64,000 bases of DNA from Prorocentrum cordatum (Eukaryota): positions 372,001 to 436,000 of the forward strand of contig CAUYUJ010000325.1 in NCBI GenBank assembly GCA_963575745.1. The letters are read 5' to 3'. Position numbers and translations under genes: made by a program. The notes under the pieces are model-generated. The model had not been told where the DNA came from. It searched no databases and saw nothing but the letters and a program-made list of their open reading frames with translations. Below are positions 4,847-30,417 of this stretch, one piece after another. Each line of letters starts with the position of its first letter. Within the stretch, counting starts at the first letter, position 1.

Positions 4847-5492
4847 CGAGCGAGGTGCTCGACGGGTGCGTGACGCCGCGAGGTGGCGGCGCGTGCGGCG
4901 TGACTCCCTGCATGTTGATCGCCCGCTCCTTTGGTCGTGGGTTTTCTCGTGCTCGGGTTTGGAGGGCGGTGGTTTTCGTTTCTCTCAAGGCCCTTTTCAA
5001 GTATCCTTCTTCCCTCCCACCCGTGAGACCATATAGGCCTTACCAGTAGGACCGCCATAAGGCCTCACACCCTCCGCAACTGCCATCATAGGGGCTGAGA
5101 GGCCAAATTCCCACGATCCTAGCACCGACGACGGACGTCGAGGACCACGACTTCGGCGACGACGATGACCGCGACTAGGACTTACCATTACGAGTGGGCG
5201 CAGCTGCACGATTGCGGGGGTGCACAAACGTGGTACTTGTACTGCCTCCTAAAGGGCTGCTCAAGGTGATGGGAGCGAGGTGTTCGACGGGGGCGTGAGT
5301 CCGCGAGGTGGCGGCGGATGTGGCGTGACTCCCCGCCTGTGGGCCGCCCGCTCCTTTTGATAGTGGATTCTCTCGTGCTTGGGTTTGGACGGTGGTTTCA
5401 ATTTCCCTCACTGCCCTTCTCAGGTGTTTTTCCTTCCCCCCCATCTGTGAGGACCATCATAGTCCTTTCTTTCAGTGAGGACTGCCATAAGG
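4847..5492. repeat. Diverged direct duplication (about 4847-5062 and 5273-5492)
   Basis: Shared GAGCGAGGTG(C/T)TCGACGGG...CCGCGAGGTGGCGGC...GTGACTCCC...CTCGTGCT(C/T)GGGTTTGGA...AGGAC(C/T)GCCATAAGGC. Confidence 0.7.
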
Positions 5493-5904: not shown

Positions 5905-6341
5905 AAGCTGACTGGACAAGACCGGGAAGCGTCGCTCCTGTCCACTAGGTATGTGGAGTATGCTCTTTTGTTGGTCTGCTGCGCAGATATGTCGTGGCGT
6001 GCGTGCGTTTGCGCGTGCGCGTGCGTGCGTGGAAGATGTGCATGTGTGTCCGAGCGTGGTGCTCCGCGGCACTGCTGTGTTATGCCGTGTTCTGCCGTGC
6101 ACCTGTGGGTTCTGCCGTGCTCCTGTGTGTACTGCCGTGCTCCTGTGTGTTATGCCATGCTGCTCTGCCATGCTCCTGCGGTCTGAGTGAACGTATGTTG
6201 CCTCTCTGTGTGTGCGTGTGTGTGTGTGCGTGTGTACGTGCCTGTGTGTGCGTGTGCGTGCGCGCGTGCGTGTGCCTGCGTGCGCGTGCCTATCTGCGTG
6301 TGCCTGCGGGTGCGGCTGTGTTAATAGATGTTCTATGTGTT
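5905..6341. repeat. Host repeat: unique head plus TGTGTTCTGCCGTGCTCC satellite and (GT/GCGT)n
   Basis: The head GGACAAGACC...GTCGCTCCTGTCCACTAGGTATG...GCGCAGATATGTCG recurs at about 15240-15350 and, diverged, at about 20240-20660. Confidence 0.8.
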
Positions 6342-6508
6342 GAAGTTGAAATTGAAGACGGGGCCTTAAAGGCAAAAGGAAAACACGGACAGGGCCAGAC
6401 GGGACCCGCGTTCCCGAGAGACGCCGCGCCCAACAGGGCACCGAGGGCGGCGGAAGCCTGCTCCCAAATGGAGCAGCTGGCGCGAGCCACAGCGATGCAA
6501 TCCTTCAC

Positions 6509-9480
6509 TCACTCACTCACGGTGGGGCCGCCACGGTGCTCCATGCGGCGGCGCACCCTGCGGCAAACCTGGGCGCCGCCTGCAGGGCCGGCTGCGGCGG
6601 CGGGGTCCTCCTCGCTGACCCCGCGCGCCCCAAGTCGCCCTGCTCTCGCTGCTTCTGGGCGCCGCAGAGGCAGGCTGGCAGCGTCCTCAGCGGCTGCCGC
6701 AGCCGCTGGGGCTCCACTAGGGCCCGCGGCCACTTGCGGCTCCGCTGCCGCCGCTGGGGCGTTGCCTGTACTGCTCGCAGTGGCCGCAGAGTCTGCAGCT
6801 GGCTCCGCTGCAGTTCCCAGCCACTCCAGGCACCGCTCCTGCGCTTGCTCAGGCACTGGACCCTGCGAGCGCAGCGCTGGGATACCCTCTCCTTTCACTC
6901 TGTGCCCGGCAGTCCGCGACCCCTCCTGCCTCCTGCCTCCAGGATGGAGTCCTCGTTGCCACAGGCTGCACTGGTTCCTGCCGCCCCTGTCGGTCTTGTC
7001 GCCTGGGCAGCGCTCCTTAAGGCGAGGCCTAATCCCTGAGCGGCCGCCCAACGTCACGTAGGCGCCGCACTTGGAGCATGCCACGTGCCCCTGGGCGCCC
7101 TTCCCTTCCCCAGCGCAGGCGTAGGACAGGGCATGCCCCAGGATGCAGAAGGGACTGCACTAGCCGAGAGGGCAGCCGAGCTGCTGCCTGTAGAGCGGCC
7201 ACTCTCCGAGCGTGGCCGCGTCCAGGCTGCAAGGTCCTCGCCGTCCTTGGCCGTCTGCTGCGGGCAGCGGTCGCGCCAGACGGCGCGGTAGACCCCTGCC
7301 TCCAGGTTGCCGTCGTCGTCGCACTGCGCAAAGGCCCAGCCCTCACAGCGGAAGGCGCCGAACTGCGGCTCGAGCACCGAGCCATCGAGGCACAGCTTGC
7401 CGTTGAGCTTACCAGCTGGCCTGCCGACGCATTGCACCCACATGGCGTCGTTGCGGCGACCCTGCTGAGGCCCTAGTGTGGGCAACCGGCAGCGGCCGCA
7501 GCCGTCGCCTGCGCGCCCGCCTAGGGCCCGCGCTCGTTCTGCACCCTGCTTCGGCCGTGTCGACACACAGTCGCGCCGCTGGGCCCCGAGCACGGGGCAG
7601 CCGAACAGGCGGTGCCACAAGGTGTCTCTCTCTGCTCTGCAGCAGCCGCAGCGCGCATGTCCTTGTTCACATGCCTCGAGGAGCATGGCCCGCGTCCAGT
7701 GCGCGTTGGTGATGCAGGCCCCGAGCACAATCTGTTCCCTCACTCTGGGCCCGCCGCCTCGCCCGAGCTGGCGTCCGATGGCGCCCCAGCGCAGTGGCAG
7801 CTGCAAGCGGGCGTCGTGGCTGAGCTTCCGCGTCACGCGACGGGCGGATGCTCGCCGAGCGCCAGGGCCAGCCTCCGAGCCCAGCTCCCGAGACCAGAGG
7901 TGCACGAAGTCGAGCTCATCGCCAGAGCCCGTGACCATGCACCGCTCGGACTTGAAGTGCCAGCCGATCCGCGCACGGGACAGCACCACCGCGTCGAAGG
8001 GGGGGGCGCAGTGCTTCCATGGCGCGTAAGCTCTTGCGCGCCTGGTCGCCGCCGCCTCCAGCCCCCGCTCAATCATCCTGGGCGGCAGTTCGCCTGTCTG
8101 CAGCAGCACCGACATCATCTGGACTGCGTGGCCAACCGTGAGGGCTGCAGAATCCAGGCTGCGCCTTCTCCTGAGCGCGGCACAGCGCAAGCACAGCCCT
8201 CGCTCCGCGCCCATGAGGAGCGCTCCTGCACTGCGGCAGGCCGCAAGCCTCCATCTGCGCGGCTCACCGTCCGCGTTGCCCGTGACCGTGCGACCGCACT
8301 CCATGCTGGCCGTGGGCCCAGCCTTGCAGATCGGGTCCTGCCTGTGAGCTCGGCGAAGCGCTCCTGCAGCTCGAACTCGTCCTTCATGCACTCCTCTCCT
8401 TTCATTGGCGGCGTCCGTGCCGATGTTCCTGGCCTGCAAGAGCTTACGGAAGGGCCAGGCTTGCGACTTCCTGGACACCCCGAGCTGGCGCCCAAGGCTA
8501 GGACGCGACGCGAGGAGGGTCGACTGAGCAGCACTGAGGGGAGGGTGCTGGACACGGAGGCGACGCGCCACTTCCAGCCCAGCGCGGCCGAGCCGTGCAG
8601 CCACCAGCTGCTCCGTGCCCACGGCCTGCATCGCGATGTCGCCGACGACGCTGCGAGCGCCCGCCAGCGGCCTGCCGCCCGCTGAGGCGGTGCGGAGGGC
8701 TGCCAGCCCAGGCAGCCTGGCCACAAAGGTGGCGCACGCACCCCCCGCCAGAACCGCCCCGTTGGTGCAGAACGACTCGGTGGCCAGGCCCACGACGGAA
8801 ACGGACCGCGGTCTCTGGTAGAATACCAGCAGCGTCACATCGCCCCCAACAGCGTCGACACCAGGAAAACGACCAGGACGCACAAGTACCTGCACCAGGG
8901 CGTCGGGCCTCACGTCCTGCAGCAGCAGCCACACAGGCTTGCGCGGGCACAGCCAAAAGCCATCCAGAGCCGAGGCCTCCCTGACGCCGTGGGCCAAGCA
9001 AAGGGGGCCCGCGAGCCCGTCGTACACGTGCTCTGCCCCTTGGGCCTCACATGTGCACTCAGCAGGCCGTCGCCGAAGGCCGCGAAGATGTCGAGGTTGA
9101 TGCCCTTGGGCCCCAGGGCGCCCTGCAGAAACAGCGAGCACGCCAGGACCAGCAGCCCAGACGCCGTGGTGACCGTGACCCCAACCAAGCGATGCCTCAA
9201 GTCACTCGGCGTCGCCCACACACCCTCCGCAGCCTGCAGGTCGCTGCGTGCAAGGGTCGCCACGCCCCCTGAGTTCGCCAGCGGGCCCTCCTGGTCCGCG
9301 GCCGCCGGCGCATGGAGGTGCGCCGACAAGCCCAAGCGCAGCACTGCTCCTCTGGCTTCTTCCAGGCGGTGCGGAGCCAGGCGGGTCTCCTCCAGCCCGC
9401 AGTGGACATCCTGAGCTGCCGTCGCGGCTTGGCCTGGCGCTGGCGGGGCCTGCGCACTCCCGAGGGCGAGGGCCCGCTTG
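6509..9480 (-). pseudogene. LINE ORF2 remnant: endonuclease-like, RT fragment, CCHC, RNase H-like and C-terminal Cys motif
   Basis: APE-like GLEETRL and GGVATLAR; CGCCRAERDTLWHRLFGCP (CX2CX8HX4C); RNase H-like LCLDGS...GWAFAQCDDDG...QTAKDGE; CSKCGAY. The region is frameshifted and appears internally deleted. Confidence 0.65.
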
Positions 9481-9546
9481 CCGCCGAGGCGGGCCGCTTC
9501 GGCACCGCCGCCCTCCTGCAGCCTAAGCCTGGCGCCACTGGCGTGG

Positions 9547-10850
9547 CTACGCGCACGACTGCCGCGGCCTCTCTCCTCCGCCGCGACTCTCAGCGGCGCG
9601 GCCAGCAGGGCGAGCAGCAAGAGGGGCCAGGTCCTCAGCCTCGGCCGCCAGCTCCCGCTTGCACGCCTGGGCGACCTTCGGCCACTCGCCGCTGGCGTCG
9701 CCTCGACGTTCGGCCTGGCCGCGCTCCGCGGCGCACTGCGGCTGCCAAGGCCTGCAGCCTCCTGCGTGGTCGCCGTCCTCACTGTCGATCTCATCCATGG
9801 GACATGACTCCGCCCAGGGCACCCTCCTCGGGGCCGCAGGGGCTTCGGCGAGCTGCGCACGCACCGCCTCCACCTGGGAGCGAATGGCCGCCCATGCCAC
9901 TTCGAAGTTGCTGGAGCCCCACGCCTCGGGCAGCTTGTCCAGCTGCATGAGGAGCCCTGGGACCTGGCTGGCCCCTGCCCACTCGGCTGCACGCTGACGC
10001 AGCTGCGCAGCGGCCTCCACTCGGGCTTCCTCCTCGGGGGCGTGGAGCGCACGGCTTGCCTCCTCCACCTCAGCATCGAGCTGCGCCAGCTCCTCCTGGG
10101 CCTTCTGCAGCTGGGCCTCGGCGATGCCACGTGCTGCTTGCTTCTGCTCCAGGCCCTGGCGCGCCGCTCGGAGGCGCTTCTCTGCCTTGCTGATGGCGTT
10201 CGCCTCCTTGTGGAGCACCGCCGACAGCGGCAGGGAGGGCGCCTTCTGCACTGCTGCCGAGCGCTGGGCCTCAACCAGCTCTGCGCGCTTGGCCTCCAGC
10301 TGGCTACAACGACGTCGGTGAAGCAGCAATCGGCCCCGTCGGGCGGCCCTGCCTGCAGCTCCTCCAGCTGCTCGACCGCCACTTGCAGCCTCTCGATCGC
10401 CGTGGCGTCGCTGCCGCTGGGCGCCCCGCTGGCTCCCTACGCCGAGGTCTGCGACTTGGTGGTTGCCGCACTCGTAGCCGCACTGCGGGCCTGCCGTTGG
10501 GCGCGGCGCCCGCGCGGCTGGTCCACCCAGCCGTCCTTGTCAGCCTGGGGCTTGGCCTTGGCTGCTGCTTCCAGGGCCCATGGCGGAGCTGCATACCCAC
10601 AGCCAAGGCACGTGGTGCGCCAGTCCCAGTTCCACCCTCCGCAGCTGCACATCCAGTACTTCCTGCTGCGCCTGCTGCCGCTTGCCGCCACCCCGCGAGG
10701 AGCGCGCCATGGCCCAGGCCGCGCTGGCTGGCAGGTCGCCCCTCCGCGCCGCGAAGGCAGAGAGCACAACAAGGAAGTGTACTGGCCCAAAGCGAGGAGG
10801 CCCTCGCGCTCGGAACGCCGCGGACGACTTGCGGTCGTCGGGTGATCCAT
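9547..10850 (-). pseudogene. LINE ORF1 remnant with zinc finger and coiled coil
   Basis: ATG lies 3 nt after the SL. KYWMCSCGGWNWDWRTTCLGCG is RanBP2-like. EANAISKAEKRLRAARQGLEQKQAARG is coiled-coil-like. The frame is broken by a stop and a frameshift. Confidence 0.65.
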
Positions 10851-10853
10851 GGC

Positions 10854-10875
10854 CTTGAGCCAAAATGGCTACGGA
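10854..10875 (-). other. Dinoflagellate spliced-leader copy, 22/22
   Basis: Reverse complement reads TCCGTAGCCATTTTGGCTCAAG. Confidence 0.97.
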
Positions 10876-11313
10876 GATGTTCTATGTGTTCTGCCGTGCT
10901 CCTGCGTGTTCTGCCGTGCTCCTGCGTGTTCTGCCGTGGTCCTGCTCTGCCGTGCTCCTATGAATTCCGATGTGCTCCTGTGTGTTCTGCCGTATTGCTG
11001 CTTGCTTTGCCGTGCTCCTATGTGCTTTGAAAGATCTGCCGCGCTCCTGTGTGTTCTGCCATGCTCCTGTGTGTTCTGCCGTGCTCCTATGTGCTCTGTG
11101 TGTTCTGCCGTGCTTCCGTGATCCTGCGTGTTCTGCCGTGCTCATGTGTGCTCCGCCGTGCTCCTGCATTTTCTGCCGTCAATGATGCCGTGCACCGGGG
11201 TGTTCTGCCATGCTCCTGTGTGTGCTGCCGTGCTCCTGTGTGTTCTGCCGCGCTCCCCCTTGTTCTGCCGTGCCCCTATGTGTTTTGTGTGTTATGCCGT
11301 GCTCCAGTATATT
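10876..11313. repeat. ~18-bp satellite TGTGTTCTGCCGTGCTCC
   Basis: Tandem degenerate copies. The same satellite occurs at 12921-13197, 14551-14705, 16293-16486 and 18798-19385. Confidence 0.9.
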
Positions 11314-12920
11314 AAATTTGAAATTAAAGGCGGTGCCTTCAAGGCAAGTGGTGGCCAGAAACGCAGACAGGGCCAGACGGGGCCCGCGTTCCCGAAAGGA
11401 GCCGAGTCCTGAGACACGCCCACCCAAGAGGGGCCACCTAGGGCCGCCTCTCGACACGGGCCAGGGAAGGCGGACGGCAAAGCCACTGGCTCTGGCCCCC
11501 AACCTGCCCACGCCAATCATGCAAGCACTGCGAGAACAGAAGCTACGCATGACCACAACCGAACTCGACTGCATTGCAAATACACCACGTGCACATTCAA
11601 ATGCAGGAGACATAAGCCACTGAACAACCACAGCCCCCCACCCCCAATGGGGAACAGACGTGCAGGGCGAAACATCACTCAGAAGGCATTCCGAACACGC
11701 AGGGAAAAGACGTCTCACGGGGGGCACTAACCACGCTGCTCCAACCACTCCTCGGATCCAAGCCTGGAGGCAGCGGCGCCCCGCCTGCAGTACCTCCAGC
11801 GCTCGCTCCTTCATCCGAGGGCGCCTGCGCCGTCGCGGCATCCGCTGCGAGCGAAGCGCGGGCGACGGCCGCCCTCGCACGCCACCAATCACGAGCCGCG
11901 ACCTCGCCACGAGCCCTGGCGCCGCCGCCCCCACGGAAGAGGGCCCGCGGGAAGGCGTCGAGGTACGCGGCGGCGGCGGCAGCAACATGTCCAGCAGGTT
12001 CGGCAGCTGGCGGCCCCCCAACCGAGCACGCGGTGGCCACGTCGGCCTCGCCGTCGAGGATCGCGCCGTCGGAGTCGGAGCACTCGCCAGCAGCGCGCGG
12101 CGGCGCCGCCATAGCGCCCGCGGCCTGCGCGAAGTCCACCTCGCAGACAACCTCCGACACCCCAGGGAAGAGAAGGGAAGGCACGTAGCAATCGCCGATG
12201 TGGGCGCCACGCCCAGCGCGGGCGCGCCCAGCCAGCTCGAACTCCATGTTAAGCTGCTGCTGCGCCTCGTCGCACTCATCGACGTCGATCTGGGCCTGCA
12301 TCCCCTGGGCGCTGCCGCCGCCGGCAACGGGGCCAACCCCGGCCGGGGCGAAGGGCCTCGCAGCCGACCGCCGCGCCGTGCGCAGGGCCACAACTCGGCC
12401 AAGCTGCGGCAGCGCCTCCGCCTCGCAAATCTCCACGTGGCACTCAAACTTGCGCTCTCGCCTCGCCCCCAGCCTGGCGGACCGCTGGAGCCGCCGCAGG
12501 GCGAGGCCACACGCCGACGCAACCCTGGCCCCAGGGGCGTCGGCGTGGAGAGCCACATTCCTCCGCACTGCATCCTCCTGCTCGGGGGCCACTCCCCGCA
12601 GCAAGGCCGTCAGCGCGGGCGCGATCGCACCCGGGCGGTCGGCCAGCTCGGCGTCGCCCACGTAGGACGCGAAGCGCCGCCGAACGGCCTCCAACTCGCT
12701 GCGCAGGGCCGCTGCCTCCGCGAGCGCTGTCTTCACTCCGTTGTCCGCTGCCTCGAGCGCCCGCCCCCGAGCCGCAGAACGCTCCGCGCGCGTCCACCGC
12801 GGCTCGCCGGGGCATGCGCGTGCAGCACCAGGAACACTGCCCAGCGTCCCCGCCCGCGCCATCATGCCCAAGCGCCCGCCGCCGAGCGCCGAGCCAGGCT
12901 TGCACCAAAATGGCTACGGA
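11314..12920 (-). mobile_element. RT-less SL-capped retroelement B1 (1.6 kb)
   Basis: SL 20/22 at 12899-12920. The 3' end is GCCTTGAAGGCACCGCC plus a TTTAA-type tail. A 14-bp TSD TGCTCC(A/G)GTATATT lies at 11300-11313 and 12921-12934, and an empty site is visible at 18979-18992. Confidence 0.85.
11675..12865 (-). CDS. B-family protein (~396 aa; coiled coil, LADR, RRNVALHA, VEICEA), unknown function
   Basis: Uninterrupted ORF starting 33 nt after the SL. Its motifs are shared with the elements at 13.2-14.5 kb and 45.0-46.5 kb. Confidence 0.6.
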   Translation of the reverse strand: MMARAGTLGSVPGAARACPGEPRWTRAERSAARGRALEAADNGVKTALAEAAALRSELEAVRRRFASYVGDAELADRPGAIAPALTALLRGVAPEQEDAVRRNVALHADAPGARVASACGLALRRLQRSARLGARRERKFECHVEICEAEALPQLGRVVALRTARRSAARPFAPAGVGPVAGGGSAQGMQAQIDVDECDEAQQQLNMEFELAGRARAGRGAHIGDCYVPSLLFPGVSEVVCEVDFAQAAGAMAAPPRAAGECSDSDGAILDGEADVATACSVGGPPAAEPAGHVAAAAAAYLDAFPRALFRGGGGARARGEVAARDWWRARAAVARASLAADAATAQAPSDEGASAGGTAGGAPLPPGLDPRSGWSSVVSAPRETSFPCVFGMPSE

Positions 12921-13197
12921 TGCTCCGGTATATTCTGCCATGCTCCTGCGTGTTCTGCGGCGCTCCCCCTTGTTCTGCCGTGCTCTGCCGTGCTCCTCCT
13001 GCTCCTTTGTTATGCCGTGCTGTTGTGTGCTCTGCCGTGCTCCTGAATGTTCTGTGTGTTCTGCCGTGCTCCGTGCGCATTCTGCCGCGCTCGTTCGTGT
13101 TCTGCCGTGTATCTGCGTGTTCCTGTGTGTTGTGTCGTGCTCCTGTGTGTTCTGCCGTGCTCCTGTGCGTTCTGCCGTGCCCCTGCGTGTTCTGCGC

Positions 13198-14550
13198 GTT
13201 AAAAGTTAAAGTTAAAGACGGGGCCTTCAAGGCGGAGTGGTGGGGCCAAAAGGCAAAGAAAAGGACGCGCTCTCCCGAGAGGGGCCGCCTGGGGCCGCCT
13301 CTCGCCGCGGGGGCCGCACTGGGCCTTCACCGCGCGGCACCGCAGGCGAGAGCAGATCTACGCACAGAATGCAACTGCCCGCCTCGCTCTTCGCTCTTGG
13401 GCCGCGTCATGCAACGCGCACGGTCCAAAAGAACGTCGAGAAGCCGCTGGCGCTCCTCGGCATCTGGACAACCTGCACCTCCGAGGCGGACGCCGAGGGC
13501 GCGGGCCTCGGCCAAGTCCAGGGGTCCAGGAGTGACTCAACTCCAGACTTCGGCCCCTTGGCCGCGCGCGCCACCGCCGCCGCCGAGAAGCCGCCCAGGA
13601 ACGAAACGAACGCGCCCTCCGAGCTCGAGCGGCCCTCGCCCTCGGCGCAGTCGACGCTGTCCGCGACCAGGGGCGGCTCCACGTCGTCGCTGACGACGCT
13701 GCTGCCGCCCAGGTGCGGCACGACGTCGTCGGCAAACTCGACGGGTCCACGCGTAGACGGCCTCGAAGAGTCAGCGTCGCTGGCACCAGCCAAACCGTCC
13801 ACGCTGGCACGACCGCCAGCACCAAAGTCTGCACTGCCACGTCCCAAGACGGGAGGCAGCGGCGCACAGCCTGCAGCGCCTCCAGGGACCTTCTGCGCCC
13901 CGAGGGCGGCGGCCACGGAGCAGGAAGAAAACGCAACTGCGCCACAAGTACACCGCATGCCCTCGAAGCCGCGCAAACAGCAAGGCTCGGCCGAAGATCT
14001 CAGCGGCGTGCGCCTCCGCAGCGGCAGACCGCCCATGAGCTTCGGCAGCGGCTCAGCCTCGCAGATCTCCACGTCGATGTCCAGGCCACCTAGCCGAGAG
14101 ACACAAACGCCGTGGTCGCCCACACTGCGGGCGCCTTTCTCCTGCGACCCCAGGCGTTGACCCTTCTGGGCCTTCCTGAGGGGTGCTGCCGCAGCGGAGG
14201 CGATCGACAGCGCCCCGTCGGCCTCGGCGTGGAGCGCCACGTTGCGCCGTAGCCGCTCCAACCAGGTCGGCCCCTCCCCCCGCACAAGCGCAGCCAGTGC
14301 GGGATTACCGCCTGGACCCGATCCGCCAGCCCAGGCACGCCGACGAGCAAGTCGAGGGCGGCCTCCACCGCGCGCAGGCGGGTCTGGGCCTCGCCAGCAG
14401 CCTCCAAGGCACGCCGCACGGCCGCATCAGCAGCCGCTCGGGCGCGCCGCGCCGCCTCGCCTCTCTCGCGCCGCGAGCGGGGGAACCGCAGAGGGCCCCC
14501 TCCCGTGACCATCCCTCGCCCAAGCAAGCTTGAACCGAGCTGGTTATGTG
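13198..14550 (-). mobile_element. RT-less retroelement B2, diverged, ORF frameshifted
   Basis: The 3' end is GCCTTGAAGGCCCCGTC plus (TTTAAC)n. A degenerate SL (14/22) lies at 14529-14550. It encodes GLADRVQAVIP, LRRNVALHA and DVEICEAEPLP. Confidence 0.75.
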
Positions 14551-14719
14551 TGTTCTGCCGTGTTCCTGCGTGTTCTGCTGTGCTCCTGTGTGTTCTGTCA
14601 TGCTCCTATGTATTATGTAAATTCTGCCGTGCTCCTCGTGCTCCGGTTTCTGCCGTGCTCCCGTGTGTTCTTTGGGTTATGCCGCGTTCTGCCGTGCTTC
14701 TGCGCGTTGGGCTGCCAGG

Positions 14720-15240
14720 ACCCGTTCAAAAAGGTTTGTTTGAAAGGATGTCTCGAGCGAAACGCTGATGTTCGAGTGGCAGTGTTGATAACCCATGGGT
14801 GATTCAATAATTTTGCTTCTTGGGCCATCTTGACGTCATCCGAAAACGTTCCAAATGGATGCCTGAAACGAGCTCTTATCGCATCCCATTGTTTCCTGGA
14901 TGTCTCAGGCAAAGCTGTCATTTTTGTCCAGGATGTTTCAGGCAAAGCTGCCGCAGGTTGTCTCAGGATGTTTCCAGGATGTCTCGGGATGTCCCATCGC
15001 AAAGTCCGAAGAGTAGAACAACGACTTCAAGATCATCATTTTCCGCGGATGCCTCAGGCGCAGCGCCCACGTTTAGCATAAGACGTCTGAAGGTACGACC
15101 CCAAACTTCGCAATGAGGCGAGGATGTCTGAGGCAAAACGCATGTTTTCTACCGATCAATGAATTTCGCGGATCAGTGTTTCGAGGATGTCTCGAGCGAG
15201 ACGCTTGTTTTTGTTAAACGCGATGTCGCTGTTTGTGGGC
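14720..15240. repeat. Dispersed repeat rich in GAGGATGTCTC(A/G)AGCGAAACGC
   Basis: The motif recurs here and at about 19440-20230 and 27860-28090. Confidence 0.65.
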
Positions 15241-15385
15241 AACCTGATCGGACAAGACCAGGAAACGTCGCTCCTGTCCACTAGGTATGCAGAGTATGCT
15301 CTTTCGTTGGTCTGCCGCGCAGATATGTCGTGGCGTGCGCGCGCGGAATAGATGAATTTGCGTCCGTGCGTGGTGGTCCGCAACA

Positions 15386-16268
15386 GTTACAGTTAAAGAC
15401 GGGGCCTTCAAGGCAAGTGGTGGCCGGAAACGCAGAGAGGGCCAGACGGGGCCCGCGCCCCGAAAGAAGCTGGGCCCAGAGACACGCCCTCCCAAGAGGG
15501 GCCACCTAGGGCCGCCTCTCGACACGGGCCAGGGAAGGCGGACGGCAAAGCCACTGGCTCTGGTCCCCAACCCGCCCAAGCCAATCATGCAAGCACTGCG
15601 AGAACAGAAGCAACGCATGATCACAACCCAAACTCGACTGCATTGCAAATACACCACGTGCAAATTCGAAGGCAGGAGACATACCCCGCTGAACAACCAC
15701 AGCCCCCCACCCCCAATGGGGAACAGACGTGCAAGGCGAACCATCACTCAGAAGGCATTCCGAACACGCAGGGAAAAGACGTCTCACAAGGAGCACCAAC
15801 CACGCTGCTCCAACCACTCCTCGATTCCAAGCCTGGAGGCAGCGGCGCCCCGCCTGCAGTACCTCCAACGCTCGCTCCTTCATCCGAGGGCGCCTGCACC
15901 GTCGCGGAATCAGCTGCGAGCCAAGCACGGGCGACGGCCGCTCTCGCACGCCACCAATCACGAGCCGCGACCTCGCCTCGAGCCCTGGCGCCGCCGCCCC
16001 CACGGAAGAGGACCTGCGGGAAGGCGTCGAGGTACGTGGCGGCGGCGGCAGCAACGCGTCCAGCAGGTTTCGGCAGCTGGCTGCTCCCCAACCGAGCAAG
16101 AGGTGGCCACGTCGGCCTCGCCGTCGAGGATCACGCCGTCGGAGTCGGAGCACTCGCCAGCAGCGCGCGGCGGCGCCGCCAGAGCGCCCGCGGCCTGCAC
16201 GAAGTCCACCTCGCAGTTAACCTCCGACACCCCAGGGAAGAGAGGGGGAGAGAGGGGAAGGCATGTGT
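15386..16268 (-). mobile_element. 5'-truncated copy B3 of the B1 element
   Basis: Highly similar to 11320-12183, with the same 3' motif and a TTTAAC/TGTAAC tail. A perfect 24-bp TSD GTCCGTGCGTGGTGGTCCGCAACA lies at 15362-15385 and 16269-16292. Confidence 0.88.
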
Positions 16269-16486
16269 GTCCGTGCGTGGTGGTCCGCAACACTGCTGTG
16301 TTATGCCGTGTTCTGTCGTGCACCTGTGTGTTTTGCCATGCTCCTGTGTGTGCTGCCGTGCTCCTGCGCATTATGCAGCGTTTCTGCTCTGCCGTGCTCC
16401 TATGAGTTATGCCGGGATCCTGCGTGTTCTGCCGTGTTCCTATGTGCTATGTGTGTTCAGCCGTGCTTATCGTGATCCTGCGCGTT

Positions 16487-18795
16487 TGTTTAAAGTTTAA
16501 AGTTTAAAGACGGGGCCTTGAGGGCGTAAGCTATGCACCAAATTACGCGCAGGGCCAGACGGGACGGAGTTCCCGAGAGACGCCGAGCCCCAGAGAGCAC
16601 AGAGGGCAGCGCGAGTCTACTCACCAACAGGCGCGAGCCTCACTGCTAACTCTCACTCACCCACGGACAGCGGCCGCACTGCGCCCGACGGCGGCGCCCC
16701 CCGAGGCTCCCGAGTGTCCCGAGCGGCCCCGCGCCGCGCTGGCCACAGGCCCAGCCTTGTGGATCAGGTCCAACTCCGCGCCCGCGGCACGGGGGCGGCC
16801 CTGCCCGCGCGCACTGCGCATGGCCCCAGGAGCTTGCACTCGGCCCTCATGCGCTCCTCGTCCCGCGAAGGCGGCGCTCATGCTGAGGTTCCTGGCCTGC
16901 AGGGTCTTACAGAAAGTCCAGCCCTGCGTCTCCCAATGCCCTCCAGGCTGTCGCGCGCCGCGGAGCCTCGAAGCGCGGGCGGCGGCCTGGGCAGCACTGA
17001 GGGGGAGGTCGCAGAACGCGGAGGAGGCGACCCACTTCCAGCCCAGCGCCCCTTGCTGGGAGGTGAACGACTCGGTGGCCAGGCCCACGAAGCGGGGGAT
17101 ACGCGGCCTATGGTAGAGCACGTGTAGACCTCGAGGAACCCGCAGGTCTACGCCATGCCCGACTCCGCACCGCCACAGGAAGCCGCGACGCAGGCTCTCG
17201 TAGAACCTGGCGGCGTCCAGGCAGAGGCAGACGGAGGCACCTCCCCGCTCGCGCGCAGGCGCGGCGCATGCGCAGTGCAACCAGCCTGCCTTCTCGTGCT
17301 CGCCGTCCACCTTGCCCCCAATGGAGAGGCGGTCGTGCTCCGCCCCTCCCAGCGCGCCGATGGGCTGCCTCGGGCGGCCCCAGATGCGCATGAGCAGCGG
17401 GGCGTTTACGATCGGTCGGACTCCTACATCCGACACGGGAAAGAAGGTCAGCATGGCAGCACGGGCGCCCAGGGGCTGCGGCTGCGCCTCCTGCGCCACC
17501 GGGGGGCCCAGGACGCCCTTCAGCGAGCAGGTCCGCCGCCCCAAGTCTGATGCAATATACACTGCGGCCTCGATCCTCCGAAGCTTGAGGTCGCTCGGGA
17601 CCTGCCGAGCAACCGTCGCTGCCCGCATGGCGCAGCGAACCGAAGGCACGACGCTGCCTGCGCGAACCAGCGGGCCCTCCATGCCCGAGGGCGCGAACAG
17701 GCAGGGGAAGAACGTGCACCACCTGCGGCGCGCAGCTCCTCTGGCCTCCTCTGGGCGGCTCGGGGCGACGCCGGCCTCCTGACGCCGCGCCTGGCTGGGC
17801 TTGGCTCCGCGCCGACAGACGGAGGCCTCAGTGGCCGCTAGGCTCCACCTCCTGGCGTCGCTGTACAACTCCAGCACCTCCTGCCCGCGGAGGCAGCCCT
17901 GAGGCGCCGCAGGGGCCTGGCCTGGTGCCGGTAGGGGCGGCTCGCCCCCGAGGACGTGGAGCCGCTTGCTGCCGCAGCAGGCCACCTCGGCGCTGCCGCG
18001 CGCGCACAGGCGTGGTTCCGCCGCACTGGCCCCGCTAGGCGCTCGTCCGCCCTGGCTGTGCTCCTCCATCGCTGCCTCCAGCTGCGTGGCCAGCAGGGCG
18101 AGCAGCCAGAGGGGCCAGGGCTGCAGCCTCAGCAACCAGCTCCCGCTTGCATGCCTGAGACACCTGCGGCGCCGAGCGCGCTGCCATGCCGCTCCGCTTG
18201 GCCTCGTTCCACGGCGGGCTGCGGCTGCCAGGGCCCACTGCTGCCTGCGAGCTCGCCGTCGTCGCTGCTGATCTCGCCCGCGGAGCAGGACTCCGCCCAC
18301 GGCGCTCGTTTGGGGGCCGAGGGGGGCCCTGCAAGCTGCGCCCGCACCGCCTCGATCTGGGCGCGAATGGCCGCCCATGCCACCTCGAAATTGCTGGAGC
18401 CCCAGGCCTCTGGCAGCTTGTCCAGCTGCGTGAGGAGCCCTGGCACATGGCTGGAACCCACTCGGCCGCGCGCTGACGCTGCCGCGCCTCTGCCTCCTCA
18501 CGGGCCGCTTCTTCGAGAACCTGGAGCGCTCTGCTGGCTCCCTCCACCTCGCCGTCGAGCGCCGCGAGCTCCCCCTGGGCCTTCTGGAGCTGCACCTCCG
18601 CCAGGTCCCGCGCCGCCTGCTTCTGCTCAAGGGCTTGGCGGGCTGAGCGGAGCCGCTTCTCCGCCTTGCTGATGGCGTTCGCCTCGCAAGACAGGAGTGA
18701 ACTGGCCCAAAGCTCGGAGACCCTCGCGGTCACGGCGCCGCGGACGAATCGCGGTCGTCGGGTTCTCCATGGCCTTGAGCCAAAATGGCTACGGA
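16487..18795 (-). mobile_element. Internally deleted LINE A2 (A1 family), SL-capped
   Basis: Perfect SL at 18774-18795 followed by GCCATGGA, as in A1. Has the ORF1 coiled-coil homologue and RT motifs GVRPIVNAPLLMRIWGR and LCLDAARFYESL. Tail is (TTTAAAC)n. A 14-bp TSD TGATCCTGCG(C/T)GTT lies at 16473-16486 and 18798-18811. Confidence 0.85.
18774..18795 (-). other. Dinoflagellate spliced-leader copy, 22/22
   Basis: Reverse complement reads TCCGTAGCCATTTTGGCTCAAG. Confidence 0.97.
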
Positions 18796-18797
18796 TT

Positions 18798-19385
18798 TGA
18801 TCCTGCGTGTTCTGCTGTGCTCCTGCGTGTTCTGCCGTGCTCCTGCATGTTCTGCCATCAAATATGCCGTGCACCTGTGTGTTCGGCCGTGCTCTTGTGT
18901 GTGCTGCCGTGCTCCTGTGTGTTCTGCCGCGCTCCCCCTTGTTCTGCCGTGCCCCTATGTGTTTTGTGTGTTCTGCCGTGCTCCGGTATATTCTGCCATG
19001 CTCCTGCGTGTTCTGCCGCGCTCCCCCTTATTCTGCAGTGCTCCGCCGTGCTCCTCCTGCTCCTGTGTTCTGCCGTGCTGCTGTGTGCTCTGCCGTGCTC
19101 CTGTGCGTTCTGCGTGTTCTGCCGTGCTCTGGCATGTTATTCCGTGTTCTCTGTGTGTTCTGCCGTGTTTCAATGCATGCTGTGCGTTCTGCCTTGCTCC
19201 TCGTGCTTCTGTGTGTTCTGTCGCGCTCCTGCGCAGTCTGCCGCGTTCGCGCGTGTTCTGCCGTGTACCTGCGAGTTCCCGTGTGTTGTGCCGTGCTCCT
19301 GTGTGTTCTGCCGTGCTCCTGTGTGTTCTGCCGTGCTCCCGCGCGTTCTGCCGTGTTCCTGCGTGTTGGTATGCCGTGCTCCTGC
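18798..19385. repeat. TGTGTTCTGCCGTGCTCC satellite; uninterrupted paralogue of the block split by B1
   Basis: Matches about 11120-11313 joined to 12935-13190. Confidence 0.85.
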
Positions 19386-20705
19386 CCATCTTCTGACGAT
19401 TTCTCGGGCGTGAAGCTCACTTTTAACACGCGCTGTATTAACCAACAGCTTCAACACCTTATGTTTTCGAGGATGTCTCGGGTGATGGCCCCATTATCAC
19501 GAGTTTGGTAAGTTCGCGACTTTCAATTTCTGGTGGAGTTCAACGGCGAAACGCTTGCTTTTGTAAAAGACGGCGCTGCGAACAACTCGTTGTTTGTGAG
19601 GATGTCTCCAGCGACGTGCTAAAGTTGAGGAATATCGAGAGCGCTCTACTGGGCCCCTTCTGGGGCTCGTTTGGTGCTGCCTCGGATGCGTAAAAGCACG
19701 CCAGTCCGGCGTCAGCTTGTCAGGAATGGTTCCCAAACGAAATCGGAACAGCAATGTTCAAAACGATGCTGTGGCATGGTTCATTGTTTTGAAGATGTTC
19801 CTAACGAAATTGTCACCATCGGCAGTCTTCAGGGCGCTCTTGGAACCATATTGAAGTCCTTGTTGGGCTCTCATTTCGTCATGCGGGAGGACTTCAAGAA
19901 CGATGTCAAGACAATGTTGAGAACATGTCATTTTGTCGAGGACGTCCCCAGCGTTGTCAGCCGTGCTATTTTTGGGCGTCTGCCGTGCTGCCTGTCATTT
20001 TCTGAAGATGGCCCGAGCGAAAACATAACTTTCAACGAAATATGGAATACTTTAACTCCGTCGACATCTCGGTTGGGCTAGAATGGGCCGGGCGGAGCGC
20101 CAAGTTTTACATCTTGGCGAATTTCGCGGGCCCCAGTGTTTCGAGGATGCCACAAGCGAAACGCTTGTTTCTGTTAAGCGCGATGTTGTGAATATAGCAT
20201 GTGTGTGAAGATGTCTCAAGCGAAATCGCCACATTTAACAACCTGACCTGACAAGAACGGGAAGTGTGGTTTTTGTTCACGATGTATGTGAACTATGATG
20301 TTTTGCGGATATGCCGCGCAGATATGTCGCGGCGTGCGTGCGTTTGCGCGGGCGCGTGCGTGCGTGGAATGTGTGCTTGTGTGTCCGTCTGTGGTGGTCT
20401 GCGGCACAGTTGTGTTATGCCGCGTTGCTCTGCCGTGCTCCTGCAGTCTGCGTGAACGTATGTTGTCCATTTGTGTTTGCGTGCGTGCGTGCGTGCGTGC
20501 GTGTGTGCGCGCGTGCGTGTGTGTATGTGTCTGTGTGTGCGCGTGCGTTTGCCCGTGTGCGTGCGCCTTTTTGCGCGTGCCTGTGGGTGCGGCTACCTGC
20601 GCAAATGTTCAGTGTGTCATGCCGTGCTCCTGCGTGTTCTGGCGCGTTCTGCAGTGCTCCTCTTGTCACTGCGACGAAACGCAAACTGTCTGACGCGCCT
20701 CTGAC

Positions 20706-24600: not shown

Positions 24601-25005
24601 CGCCCCCCCAGACCAGATCACGGCACCAACCACAACAACAAGAACGACGACGACGACAACGACAACAAAAACAACAACATCAACGCAACACGCAGAACTC
24701 GCACCACCAATCCCCCATTCATCCATGCACCCAGAGACAATGAATGACCGTTCGGGCCCCTCACTCTGACGCTCCCCTCCGGGCCCAGAACCAGCGTCCA
24801 TCGCGCGAACCTTCGAGTCTAAGCGCGCTTCCCGTCATCCGCGACGCCCCGCTGGAGGGGCGATCCCGCCGCCGCCCCCCCCCCCCCCCCCCCGCGGGCC
24901 CCGTCACCTGATCAATGCCCCCCCCCTCCGGGCCGATAAGCAACCATCATCGCGCGACCCCATCGAGTCTAGGGGTGCATTTTCCTGAAGACGCAATCCC
25001 TCTCT

Positions 25006-26651
25006 AAGAGGTCTCGCGAGCTCCCGCGTAGCCAGGCACAGGACCGACTAGCGCGCGCGCGTCCGCAGACGCCGCGTGCGAGGCCACCGCCCACTCGTGG
25101 AAAACCCGCGCGAAAGAACGCGGCGCTCTGGCCGAGCGCCGACGGCAGGCCGTGGATTCAAACGGCGCAACGCGCAGCGTGCAGGATCAGCATAGCACAG
25201 CGTCGCAGGAGCCGCCATTGACAGAAGATGCGGAGTCGGCAAAGCTCGACGTGGGGCGCGGAGAGGCGGCAGACAGCCAGGTCGACCACCTGCCCGCGGC
25301 TGCGGGCCGAGCCAAACTCAAAGTCACCGAGCAGCGGGCCTAGGAACTGAGACAGAGAAGACGAGAACAGGCGTTGGGAAAACAAAAAAAAAAAAGAAAA
25401 ACACAAACTGAAACAAATGATGGTCGGTGCATCACCTGGCGCGGCTGGGGCGCGGGACGTTGCGGGTCGCCGTGGCCCGCGGGGTCAACTGTCCGCTCGC
25501 GCGTGCCCTGAGATCCCTGAACTGCGAGCAGTGCTCCGCCATGGCCCAGCGCAGGTTGACCGAATTGAAGCCGCGTCACCGAGACGAGTAAGTGTCCCAT
25601 ATGCGCCGCATTGCGAACGAGATCCGCGCCTTCCGATGCAGCGTAGACTTCGCTCGCGAAACGGCCCGGAAATCCACGTCGTCGAGGAAGCGCTGAGCGC
25701 GCGCCGACAGGCGCCGTTTAGCAGGTGCAATCGCAGCGGGAACAAGTGTAGATGGCATCTGCAAGCAAAGGCATCGAGCCAAACGCCCGCGCTGGAGCAC
25801 CACCGCGGCGAGTACACTGCCCCACGTGGCAGAAAACATTAGACGCCGACCCGCGCGCCAGAACCCATCCATTCGTCTGTGTCACGCCGTGAGATGGATC
25901 CACTGAGCTTAGCTGTACCACGACGCCCTGGTCATCAGAAAAAAAAAGGCCCTGACCCATGGCCGCCCCCTGGCGGCCAGGGGCCGGCTGGCGCGGTGAT
26001 AGCTCCTCATGCTGCGCGCTGGCTCGCTCCCGTCATGAGCGGCGCCCGACGGCGCGGAGCTCCGCGGCGGTCGCGCCGCCACCGAACGCTCGGCCCTCCA
26101 GCGCTGCGCATTTCGGCCAGCGATGGCGATCAGAAGAGAAGCGAAACACAAGATGCCCCGCCGTCCACTGAGAATCATGCTGCGCGGGGGGGCACCCCGC
26201 TGACACAGGAAAAATGCACAATCGCTCGAGCCAGGGCCTTCTCAGCGCGCTTCTTTTGAAAGCGCAGCCCCACTCCAAGAGGTCTCGCGAGCTCCCGCAT
26301 AGCCAGTCACAGGACCGACTAGCGCGCGTGCGCGTCCGCAGACGGCACGCGCGAGGCAGCCGCCCACTGGCGGGAAGCCCGCGCGACAGAACACGGCCCT
26401 CTGGCCGAGCGCTGGCGGCGGGCCGCGGATTCAAACGGCGCAACGCGCAGCGTGCAGGATCAGCACAGCGCAGTGCCACAAGAGCCGCCCCCACCAGCAG
26501 ATGCAACATCGGCAACGCTCGACGTGAGACGCGGAGAGGCGGCAGACAGCCAGGTCGACCACCTGCCCGCGGCTGCAGGCCGAGCCAAACTAAAGTCACC
26601 AAGCAGCGGGCCAGGGAATTGAAACAGTAAAGACCAGCGCAGGCGCTGGAA

Positions 26652-26694
<43 letters not shown>

Positions 26695-27520
26695 ATGATG
26701 GTCGGTGCATCACTTGGCACGGCTGGGGCGCGGGAATTTGCGGGTCGCCGTAGCCCGCGGAGTCAACTGCCCGCTCACGCGCACCCTGAGATCACTGAAC
26801 TGTGAGCCGTAGTCCGCCGCGAGACAGCGCAGGCTGACCGAATTGAAGCCGCGCCACGGAGACGAGTGCTCCATACTTGCCACCTTGTGAACGCGATGCG
26901 TGTCTTCCGATACAGTATAGACTTCGCTCGTGAAGTGGTCTAAAGCTCCACGTCGTCGAGGAAGCACTTAGTGCGCGCCGACAGGCGCCGCTTCGCAGGT
27001 ACAATCACAGCGGGAACAAGCGCAGATGGCATCTGAAAGGCCTCGAGCCAAACGTCCGTACTGGGGCACCGCCGTGGTGAGCACAGTCCCACGTGGCCAG
27101 AAACATTGAACACCGACCCGCGCGCCAGAACCCATCCATTCGTTTGTGTCACACCGTAAGATGGACCCACTGAGCTTAGCTTTGCCACGACGTCCTGGAC
27201 TTCCGAAAAAAAGGCCCTGACCCATGGCCACCCCCTGGCGGCCAAGGGCCGGCTGGCGCGGTGATAGCTCCTCATGCTGTGCACTGGCACGCTCCCGTCA
27301 TGAGTGACATCCGACGAAACGGAGCTCCACGGCGGTCGTGCCGCCACCGAACGCGTGGCCCTCCAGCGTTGGGCATTTCGGCTAGCGATGGCGATCAGAA
27401 GAGAAGCGAAACACAAGATGTCCCGCCGTCGACTGATAATCATGCTGCGCGGCGGGATTGCGACCCCGCTGACACGAGGAAAAACGCTACAATCGCTTGA
27501 GCCAGGTCCTTCTAAGCGCG
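25006..27520 (-). repeat. Two diverged tandem copies of a ~1.27-kb unit, possibly a LINE RT relic
   Basis: AAGAGGTCTCGCGAGCTCCCGC starts both copies (25006, 26277) and they are colinear throughout. Translations VTQTNGWV and (C/R)FLDDV resemble RT motifs. Confidence 0.8.
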
Positions 27521-28568
27521 CTTCCCGTCATCCGCCACGTCCCGGTGGAGGAGCGATCCCGCCAACACTCCTCCACTGGACCCCTCCACTTGATAAATAT
27601 GTTTCCCTCCGGGCCCATAGCCCTATAGCCCCATGGCCCTGAAACAAATATGATTGGGTGTTTTCCGGTATTATGTATTAGATATGCTGCAGACACAGCC
27701 ACAACGTTCAGCTCGCTTCTCGTACCTCGAAGACGCTTCCCGTCATCCGCCAGGTTCGAAGGTACCCCGAACCCTTCCCCCTCAGACTCCCCCCAGTTGA
27801 TTTTGCCTCCAGGTCTAAACATGCGTTCATCGCGCGACTCTTCGAGTCTGAGCGCGCTTCCCGAGGATGTCCCTAGCGAACACGCTGTTTTCGGCATGAG
27901 CGGCAGTAAAACACCTCCGTCGACAACTCCTTGTTGTGAGGATGTCTCAAGCGAAACGCAAAATGCACAGATGAATTAATTTCGCGGCGATCAGCTTTTT
28001 GAGGGCATCTCTGGCAAACCGCTTGTTTTTGTTAAACGCGATGTCGCGGAGATGTCATTCTTGTATGAAAGTCCCAAGCGAAATCGCCAATCGTGGGGAT
28101 CCGCTAACCCTATCTCCCGTGTAGCCAGCCACCCACTATTAGAAAGAGATTTTCAGATATGTTGCATATTCAACCACAACGTCCAGCTCGCTTCTAGTAC
28201 CTCGAAGACGCTTCCCGTCATCCGCCGACCCTGTCGGCGTGTGTGAGGGCCTTTTCCGTTCGAGCCGGGCTTTTCCGTTGGAGTCGTCGTCTCCGTCCTC
28301 CTCCGTTCCATTTGCCTGGGCCCTCTTCCTCACACGCGCCGTCCTGAGCAAAATTCAACAACATCGGAGTGTGATCAAAGGGAAACCCCTTCCCTTTGAT
28401 CCCTTCCCCGCGCCAGGGGGGAGGGGAGTCCTGGTGGGTCCTGGAGGGGTCCTGGCGGGTCCCAGGAGGTGTCGCCACCCAGATACGTTTTCCCCCCGCG
28501 CCCCGGCCCAGCCCCGGCCCCGGCCCCGGCCCCGGCCCCGGCCCCCCCTCCGGCCCCGGCCCAGCCCA

Positions 28569-30012
28569 AAACGGTTGTTCCCTCTATTCGGGTTTCAAGA
28601 CAATCGGGTTTTGGTATGCGATGGTCTCGTTCGCACCGCTCATGAGGCGGAGGAGGATAACGAGGACCATGATACGAATGATCACATATCGGCATTGATG
28701 TATAGTGATCAATGAAGTACACGCACACTTCTTGTCTTCCTGACATAGAGAACCATGCACGCATCCATACGTAAATCACAAAAACTGGTGCCAACTTTCA
28801 TATGTTTCAAATCCTTGCATATTCCCCAAACCGTGCTTGCACGAAGGAGTTCTCACTTCGTGTTCGAACGAATTCGCCCCGTCAGCCGGCGTCGCCAGGC
28901 GGAGGGAACAAGAGAGGGGCCGTCCGCTCCCTCGCCCCCGCTAGGGGGAGGGCTGTCCACCCCCTCGCCGACGCTAAGCGGATCGACGCGGGGGCCAGGG
29001 CGAACGAGGGGGGGATGAGGGAAGGAGGGAGGGAAGGGATGGGCGGGTGACAGGGAGGAATAAAAGGATGGAGGGAGGGGGCAGGGAGGGAGGGCGGGAA
29101 GGAGGGAGGGAGGGGAAGAGGGTTGTCGCTGCCGCCGCCCCCCCTCCCGGCGCTGCCGCCGCCGATGCCGTTGTCGCTACTGTTCCTGCTGTTTCTCCTG
29201 CTTCTGCTGCTCCTGCTGCTCTTGATGCTCCTACTGCTGCTCTTGCTGCTCCTGCTGCTGTTGCGTCTGCTCCTCCTCCTCGTCCGCCTCCCCAGGCCCC
29301 TCTCCTCCTTCTCCTCCTCCTCCTCCTCCTCCTCCTCCTCCTCCTCCTCCTCCTCCTCCTCCTCCCCTCCTCCCTTTTCTTCTCCTCCACTCCTCCTCCT
29401 TCCTCCTCCTCCTCCTCCTCCTCCTCCTCCTCTCTCTCTCCTCCTCCTCCTCACTTCCTCCTCCTCCCTCCTCCTCCTCCTCCTCCTCCTCCTCCTCCTC
29501 CTCCTCCTCCCCCTCCCTTCCCATCCTCCTCCTCCCCCTCCTCCTCCTCCCGGTCGGAAGGGTTGCGAGCGTCCAGGCACGCGAACGCCTGGAGCCGCAG
29601 CTCGTCAACATACCTGCCTCGTCACAGCGTGCGCACGCGGCACGCTCTCTCTCTTCCCCTGCCCCTCCGTTCCCTCCCCTCCCTCCCTCGCTCCCTTCCA
29701 TTTTCCCTCCCTCAGCCCCCTCCCCTCCATTCCCTCCCCCATACTTCCCTCTCCCATTCCCTGCCTGTTCCTCCTTGTCCCCCTCCTTCCCGTCGTCGTC
29801 TCCTCGTCGTCGTCGTCATTCTCGTCTTTGTCGTCGTCGTCGTACTCCTCCTCCTCCTCTCCTCCTCCTCCTCCTCCACCTCCTCCTCCCTCCTCCTCCT
29901 CCTCCTCTCATCGTCGTCTCTCGTCCGTCGTTCGCCGTCCTCCTCCTCCTCCTCCTCCTCCTCCTCCTCCCCCTCCTCCTCCTCCTCCATCATCATCATC
30001 AAAATCACATCA

Positions 30013-30085
<73 letters not shown>

Positions 30086-30151
30086 ACATCATCATCATCT
30101 TTATCATCCTCCATCCGCCTCCTCCCTCCTCATCCGCATCATCAGCATCAG

Positions 30152-30182
<31 letters not shown>

Positions 30183-30198
30183 GTCATCATCATCATCA

Positions 30199-30248
<50 letters not shown>

Positions 30249-30382
30249 TCATCAATCATCATAATCATCATCATCAGATCATTCATCATCGTCCATCATC
30301 ATCACCATCATCAGCATCACAGCATCATCGTCGTCACCCACCACCACCCACCACCACCACCACCACCATAATCATCATCAAT

Positions 30383-30417
<35 letters not shown>

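Follow-up and report, generated by a model that had tools for sequence, protein, structure and literature searches.

The stretch analyzed here, referred to as the window, comprises 64,000 nt (64 kb; positions 372,001 to 436,000 of contig CAUYUJ010000325.1) of the genome of the dinoflagellate Prorocentrum cordatum, and all family counts, target tallies and boundary readings given below come from it. The window contains six related retroposon copies, designated A1, A2, B1, B2, C and D, five of which are headed by the dinoflagellate spliced leader (SL; dinoSL). A search with the motif of their 3′-ends revealed five minus-strand ends, all located between 6 and 19 kb, and C brings the number to six. 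A sixth match to this motif, with two mismatches, is attributed to chance and was not counted as a copy. A perfect 22-nt SL heads A1, A2 and C; that of B1 agrees at 20/22 positions, that of D has decayed, and B2 is 5′-truncated and carries no SL. The original prediction, made for this DNA from its letters, described A1 and A2 as copies of a long interspersed nuclear element (LINE) and overlooked three SL-headed copies (B1, D and C) and the truncated B2. The copies, their target-site duplications (TSDs), two empty sites and the satellite arrays, with the open reading frame (ORF) of B1, are as follows.

6342 to 10875, minus strand: A1, an SL-headed, internally deleted LINE derivative of 4.5 kb, 5′-complete
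10854 to 10875, minus strand: perfect 22-nt SL of A1 (SL scan), followed by GCCATGG with its ATG at 10850-10848
10876-10890 (5′ copy) and 6327-6341 (3′ copy), minus strand: TSD of A1, AACACATAGAACATC, 15 nt (repeat search)
6342 to 6360, minus strand: 3′ tail of A1, a short tandem repeat, CGTCTTCAATTTCAACTTC, without poly(A)
16487 to 18795, minus strand: A2, SL-headed, 2.3 kb, 5′-complete, of the same family as A1, with other internal deletions and the tail (TTTAAAC)x3
18774 to 18795, minus strand: perfect 22-nt SL of A2, with filler AA at 18796-18797
18798-18811 and 16473-16486 (3′ copy), minus strand: TSD of A2, 13/14 bases equal
11313 to 12920, minus strand: B1, an SL-headed short element of 1.6 kb whose ORF contains the motif RRNVALHA; SL (20/22) at 12899-12920
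12921-12933 and 11300-11312, minus strand: TSD of B1, ATATACYGGAGCA
13201 to 14550 (5′ end approximate), minus strand: D, B-type and old, its SL decayed, with a TTTAAC-type tail
15383 to 16264 (5′ end approximate), minus strand: B2, 5′-truncated, no SL, 93% identical to B1
16269-16289 and 15362-15382, minus strand: flanking duplication of B2, 21 nt
45033 to 46491, plus strand: C, B-type and SL-headed, outside the satellite, with a perfect SL at 45033-45054 and the tail (GTCGAAAAGC)x2
45019-45032 and 46492-46505, plus strand: TSD of C, CGTCGACGTCGTCC, 14 nt
18979 to 18991, minus strand: paralogous empty site for B1, the satellite running uninterrupted through a single copy of the B1 duplication
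11119 to 11132, minus strand: paralogous empty site for A2, a single AACACGCAGGATCA in uninterrupted satellite
18809 to 19379, minus strand: largest array of a 20-nt satellite, unit GCACGGCAGAACACGCAGGA (element sense)
6079-6173, 10888-11302, 12932-13180, 14552-14697 and 16300-16466: other arrays of this satellite, all in element orientation

A pattern scan of the window located the dinoSL 21-mer without mismatch at 10854-10874 (minus), 18774-18794 (minus) and 45034-45054 (plus), and with two mismatches at 12899-12919 (minus); in 100 shuffles the expected number of such sites was zero. Every one of these 21-nt core matches is preceded by T, giving the 22-nt form TCCGTAGCCATTTTGGCTCAAG, and the SLs of A1 and A2 run directly into GCCATGGA. 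As in DinoSL-relict retrogenes, a genomic leader stands directly upstream of a retro-copied transcript.

The boundaries of the insertions can be read closely. The duplication of A1, AACACATAGAACATC, touches SL nucleotide 1 on its 5′ side and the last base of the 3′ tail on the other, and matches exactly twice in the window when one mismatch is allowed. The duplication of A2 has a core, CGCAGGATCA, at 18798-18807 and 16473-16482, which reaches 14 nt if one mismatch is accepted; it is parted from the SL by a further two bases, AA. Both duplications (15 nt and 10-14 nt) were re-read and agree with what had been claimed originally, namely that the SL abuts the TSD in A1 and lies 2 nt from it in A2. 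The duplication of C adjoins its SL directly. Of the four readable copies, three (A1, B1 and C) thus have the TSD immediately next to SL nucleotide 1, A2 being the fourth. Copies that extend 5′ beyond the SL had been named beforehand as the observation that would speak against the original prediction; none of the four readable copies in the window does so, and no element sequence was found 5′ of the SL inside the duplication in any of them. Across the copies the duplications measure 10-21 nt, the longest being the 21 nt of B2.

The arrays around the copies are paralogous duplicates of one another (repeat families D5 and D7), and two empty sites are available as a result. The array at 18930-19040 reads GGCAGAATATACCGGAGCA followed by CGGCAG across the exact insertion point of B1, and the array near 11119-11132 reads GGCAGAACACGCAGGATCA followed by CGG across that of A2. 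The uninterrupted paralogous site of A2 contains the third occurrence of CGCAGGATCA in the satellite (11119-11128). Hallmarks of LINEs are present, including TSDs of variable length, simple-repeat 3′ tails, 5′ truncation (B2) and the absence of terminal repeats. An assembly artefact was considered and rejected, since the duplications and the empty sites speak against it.

The joint between leader and element is equally regular. A1 and A2 have the final SL base attached to an identical body base; C and D likewise agree in the B-family base that follows it, and B1 has one extra C at this position; no SL-intron sequence is found at the SL-body junctions. So precise and fixed a joint implies that the RNA template carried a precisely spliced leader. 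The inserts start at SL nucleotide 1 (A1, B1 and C) and diverged copies share the same body base, which upholds the earlier proposal that the transposition intermediate is the trans-spliced RNA. Judging from these boundaries, it is highly probable that the copies arose from trans-spliced RNA by target-primed insertion of the LINE type. On this reading the template of each copy was an RNA carrying the host SL precisely joined to a fixed first base of the element, and the copy was inserted with a TSD of 10-21 nt and a short tandem-repeat 3′ tail, both marks of target-primed reverse transcription.

Two other ways of acquiring a leader bear on the same junctions. LINE reverse transcriptases (RTs) can switch templates at RNA 5′ ends, U6-L1 chimeras being an example, and the two untemplated bases at the 5′ junction of A2 would suit an RT that, on reaching the 5′ end of an element RNA without a spliced leader, changed over to the SL RNA or another mRNA. 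A jump onto SL RNA would copy the intron first, and what is seen is the exact end of the SL exon joined to a constant element base, with no SL-intron sequence. The constant, exact junction and the missing intron lead us to regard template switching as very improbable. Insertion into SL genes by site-specific elements, the SL being part of the target as with SLACS, CZAR and CRE, finds nothing in its favour beyond the presence of an SL. It is refuted for these copies by TSDs that lie outside the SL, by flanks of satellite or unrelated DNA and by empty sites without an SL; the endonuclease, to judge from relatives, is moreover of the APE type and not restriction-like. We give this explanation practically no credence.

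Sequence divergence around the leader bears on its renewal. Over the next 90 nt after the SL, A1 and A2 differ at 16/89 aligned sites, while the SL itself is host-identical at 22/22 positions in both; at that substitution rate, 22 SL sites would all stay unchanged with a probability of about 0.013. Between B1 and C, 25/85 sites of the same stretch differ. Older copies show decay of the leader, to 20/22 in B1 and further in D, where GGTTCAAG is recognizable and a full-length alignment gives 13/22 matching positions. Intact SLs in the diverged A1 and A2, together with decayed ones in B1 and D, imply that the leader was renewed with each round of copying and not conserved after insertion. On the evidence of these comparisons the SL is renewed at every copying round and then decays like neutral DNA.

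Many LINEs use internal promoters initiating at +1. The leader could accordingly have been gained once and now be encoded as the first 22 nt of the element, with a downstream promoter starting transcription at SL nucleotide 1; the trypanosome element L1Tc has an internal promoter and makes unspliced transcripts (PMC1874656, cited, like the papers below, from its accessible sections). For the copies described here we find this improbable. Their SL is host-identical in three copies whose lineages differ at 18-29% of neighbouring sites, it decays as neutral DNA after insertion, and a promoter of this kind would be needed twice, in the unrelated 5′ regions of A and B.

The A copies are 70-76% identical over their alignable parts. 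Both are internally deleted and frameshifted, each lacking a different half of the RT. A1 retains a zinc-finger/coiled-coil ORF1, both ends of an APE endonuclease, the RT's second half, a region resembling zf-RVT and a C-terminal domain. Its matches to P0020, a 1860-aa relative, are confined to residues 5-65, 496-672, 1051-1534 and 1662-1778, the endonuclease being represented only by parts matching residues 496-672. No equivalent of P0020 residues 673-1050 is present, and the 672/1051 junction consists of just 25 nt of DNA, from which it follows that the first RT half, including the FLDISKFY motif, is missing from A1. A2 keeps this first half (P0041 residues 591-719 at 17460-17074) and has lost most of the remainder. 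Six gene models of relatives also jump from the first endonuclease half to the second RT half, and intron calls may affect these junctions. With their internal deletions, frameshifts and missing endonuclease and RT parts, A1 and A2 are not the full-length LINE copies first described; they are 5′-complete non-autonomous derivatives. Intact ORFs sufficient for their own transposition were found in neither the A copies, which are broken, nor in B, C and D, which have no RT at all.

The proteins closest to the A family are ten predicted proteins named Prorocentrum cordatum, and relatives were found only there. An A-family profile built from five members was used to search 1.84 billion sequences, yielding 443 representatives at E≤0.001, and curated Pfam cut-offs were applied to 22 long ones among these. 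In the 22 scanned, Exo_endo_phos and RVT_1 both exceeded the cut-off in P0041, P0036 and P0118, RVT_1 alone in P0129, P0032, P0038, P0094 and P0146, Exo_endo_phos alone in P0020 and P0047, and RNase_H in P0137. RVT_1 scored 34.4 bits in P0041 and 46.2 bits in P0118; Exo_endo_phos in P0002 is weak (E 0.002). P0005 has VVDDIAL at the catalytic YxDD position. The domains of these relatives and the motif of P0005 indicate, by homology, that the A family is a descendant of an APE-type LINE with an RNase H-like and zinc-binding region downstream of the RT. Searches of the PDB sequences with the family profile and with P0041 gave no matches, a scan of IMG/VR for relatives of P0041 gave none, and a metagenome scan with an SL-free A-family 5′ pattern gave a single match, in bacterial-looking coding DNA, which we ascribe to chance.

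The original prediction also took the GCCATG behind the leader of A1 and A2 as the start of ORF1. Its coordinates and its perfect 22-nt SLs hold good; the start codon is doubtful. The ATG three bases past the SL in A1 (10850-10848) opens a frame of 137 codons with a RanBP2-like zinc finger, and does so in A1 only. The predicted proteins of the relatives begin with MARSSRGGG, the counterpart of a second ATG at 10710-10708 that A1 has in a different frame. Between these two ATGs lies a 1-nt difference that sets A1 apart from the relatives. The ATG next to the SL is probably not the start of ORF1, for which the second is a candidate.

In B1, C and D the encoded protein is a different one, in which an RRNVALHA block is conserved. 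The B-type ORF has no Pfam family and only two relatives of near its own length; none was found among longer proteins, which is weak evidence, and the Atlas gave no usable lead. C reads ACGATTG where its relatives have ATGATG at the ORF start, the start codon having been lost; it was probably copied from an RNA that was already non-coding, despite its perfect leader and duplication. One gene model, P0014, fuses a B-type N-terminus to a LINE RT. We have not used it to assign the B ORF as ORF1, as it may be a chimeric model over a B-then-A tandem like that in the window. Pfam searches of 32 other long ORFs in the window yielded nothing relevant.

At their 3′-ends the two families converge. The last ~110 nt are common to A1, A2, B1 and B2; D has the final ~40 nt and C only CCCCGTC. 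All six 3′-ends consist of two or three short units (TTTAAC-like, CTTCAA-like or, in C, GTCGAAAAGC), and none has poly(A). A consensus fold of the 3′-end received no support from covariation, and we claim sequence conservation alone. The block of ~110 nt common to A and the B/C/D family is probably the part recognized by the RT. Since the copies have no complete RT, the enzyme must come in trans from autonomous relatives. In the proposed mechanism an RT supplied by such relatives would recognize this common 3′-end and insert A- and B-type RNAs alike.

The 20-nt satellite appears to be the preferred target. Its six arrays add up to ~1.6 kb, or 2.6% of the window, and four of the six copies (A1, A2, B1 and D) sit in it in one orientation and at the same point of the unit, GGCAG/AAC (the slash marks the point); in each of them this point coincides with either the duplication's left edge or the 3′ junction. 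B2 lies ~10-30 nt past the end of an array, and C is located elsewhere. If sites were chosen at random, at least four out of six insertions would land in such a 2.6% fraction with a probability of ~1e-5. Insertion would thus seem to prefer one strand and one position, GGCAG/AAC, of the satellite. The last bases of the tails, AAC or AAT, agree with those at the start of the target, and the tail unit of C begins with the first five bases of its own target. This match between tail and target suggests that the nicked target anneals to the RNA tail. The arrays themselves belong to a larger unit, composed of an array, a conserved end and ~200 bp, which occurs at least three times (5905-6105, 15241-15343 and 20240-20443), so that the locus into which the copies were inserted is a tandem or segmental repeat in its own right.

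The junctions also bear on how a copy may become the source of the next one. None of the five SL-headed copies has a stacked or relict leader, and a 15-nt relic pattern (up to two mismatches) matches only the four SL sites. Re-splicing at an internal AG of the leader would pile up relics over the generations, so their absence in diverged lineages fits use of the terminal AG, which in the A family is followed by G. An SL-bearing copy with nothing upstream of the SL can be a source again only if it is transcribed from the flank and re-spliced, or has an internal promoter. Like the original prediction, we tentatively propose that re-splicing takes place at the terminal AG of the SL and restores the same 5′ end.

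The lack of relics and the conserved junction would be explained equally well by SL-less master loci, that is, a few source genes with a trans-splice acceptor just before GCCATGG (A) or CTGGCTCG (B), all SL-bearing insertions being dead ends. First-generation copies of such loci should have just one SL, joined at a constant point, as is seen; all six copies in the window are defective, and C lacked its start codon already at insertion notwithstanding a perfect SL and duplication. The 24-30% difference between A1 and A2, their different deletions and the still greater distances among B1, C and D would demand several source lineages separated for a long time, whereas separate LINE source lineages normally arise by retrotransposition; nor is an SL-less 5′ end seen among the copies of this single window. 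On balance we judge such master loci unlikely, if a serious contender. What remains of our expectation beside the terminal AG, master loci and an internal promoter falls to mixed or other routes.

Re-splicing at the terminal AG can be extended to a fuller picture, which we offer as speculation and consider rather unlikely as a whole. The elements would form a promoter-less LINE clade whose copies are inserted, always in one orientation, into a satellite that is transcribed, so that transcription from the flank runs through them. Host trans-splicing at the terminal AG of the encoded leader would restore a capped 5′ end in each generation, in the role that the 5′ ribozyme has in R2. When it acts in trans on RNAs capped with a leader, that same machinery would also drive the recycling of mRNA in dinoflagellates, whose engine has long been sought.

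Several points weigh against this account of LINE-driven copying and terminal-AG renewal. The satellite upstream of the copies is purine-rich and A/C-rich with many AGs and does not make an obvious outron. The re-splicing sites published for retro-copied leaders are an internal AG and possibly a TG, both of which leave relics, and in the accessible text of PMC3229502 and PMC12014239 the terminal AG is not among them. As all six copies lie in one window, the preference for the satellite could partly reflect local clustering. The assignment to LINEs is made through transitive homology only: no window ORF has a Pfam match to RVT_1, the best being a weak zf-RVT (E 0.058). Finally, an intact autonomous copy was not seen, and P0020, the longest close relative and itself a gene model, has no counterpart of the middle portion of P0041's endonuclease.

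Ideas of this kind have a history. PMC3229502 credits Slamovits and Keeling (2008) with the view that the leader, by means of two conserved AG acceptors, promotes its own presence. Reuse of the internal AG and the resulting build-up of relics in retrogenes are described in PMC3229502, PMC7245778 and PMC12014239, and PMC3229502 adds that trans-splicing could excise relics. The acceptor idea is thus already published for retrogenes; its application to LINEs is new as far as our literature search reaches. If the terminal AG is indeed reused, recycling leaves no relic, and retrogene counts based on relics would be underestimates.

The window contains other repeats besides. An inverted duplication (28570-32342 versus 40290-37012) is 84-90% identical over ~1.7 and 2.1 kb and has many short internal repeats. 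A direct tandem duplication of ~1.27 kb (24988-26253 and 26260-27524) is 84% identical, and a tandem array at 49452-50125 has a period of 73 bp with copies 97-99% identical.

Leaders also occur in viral sequences. A scan of IMG/VR returned 119 stretches (L002-L120) with 137 unique SL sites after dereplication. Most of those listed come from AT-rich contigs that were binned as giant viruses, for which reason they were rejected as a census of LINEs. Of the 137 sites, 129 follow an A, and many leaders stand directly behind recurrent AT-rich motifs, a few tens of bases before an ATG. One contig, L014, carries leaders at 5103-5123 and 7001-7021, and two of its ORFs start 50 nt after a leader; it has genes for an NAD-dependent DNA ligase and for a glycosyltransferase of family GT41. 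The leaders of these giant-virus contigs may represent viral mimicry of the host leader without trans-splicing, an idea for which nothing was found in the literature searched.

In the literature searched, which left most subscription journals and supplements out of reach, no LINE beginning with dinoSL is described. For P. cordatum, the paper on its genome gives dinoSL in 4.95% of transcripts, and in the accessible text of that paper the whole word "LINE" occurs once, in "kinked line" (PMC10666404). The source of the RT for retrogenes has been called unknown, with Ty1/copia favoured (PMC6050394, PMC3942190), and LINEs have been suggested as mediators of viral insertions carrying relict leaders (PMC10235124). 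To this the window contributes two empty sites, leader-headed non-autonomous copies of two families with a common 3′-end, an apparently fixed satellite target, a series of leaders in decay, and the absence of stacking across diverged lineages.

Retrogenes with leader relics, or recycled processed cDNAs, are well known in dinoflagellates (PMC3229502, PMC6050394, PMC7245778, PMC12014239) and likewise have a DNA copy of the 22-nt leader at the 5′ end. The RNA copied here, in contrast, is the derivative of a retrotransposon and not of a host gene, A being LINE-derived and B having a LINE 3′-end. All the marks of insertion are visible (duplication, repeat tail, 5′ truncation and empty sites), and no truncated relic follows the leader. 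Leader-headed RNAs inserted with the hallmarks of LINEs point to LINE machinery acting in trans as the means of retro-copying in dinoflagellates.

The L1Tc/ingi LINEs of trypanosomatids resemble the present elements, probable derivatives of an APE-type LINE, in that a LINE of this type and its non-autonomous partners occur in a trans-splicing organism. L1Tc, with its Pr77 internal promoter, makes unspliced transcripts (PMC1874656, PMC8190864), whereas the copies described here begin with the host leader. LINE RNA in this lineage is evidently treated like host mRNA, the opposite of trypanosome LINEs, which avoid trans-splicing.

SLACS, CZAR, CRE and NeSL insert into SL RNA genes, cutting the SL gene and using its promoter. 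They share with our elements a link between LINEs and the spliced leader, and differ in that here the SL lies inside the insert and the target is unrelated to it. R2-type target-specific LINEs are co-transcribed with their target, and their own ribozyme trims the 5′ end. In the P. cordatum elements the processing would be done by host trans-splicing and not by a self-cleaving ribozyme, the endonuclease, to judge from relatives, is of the APE type, and the satellite would have to be transcribed. The likeness to R2 consists in what seems a recurrent choice of a single position and orientation within a tandem repeat, in the lack of a promoter of their own, and in a 5′ end that would come from RNA processing.

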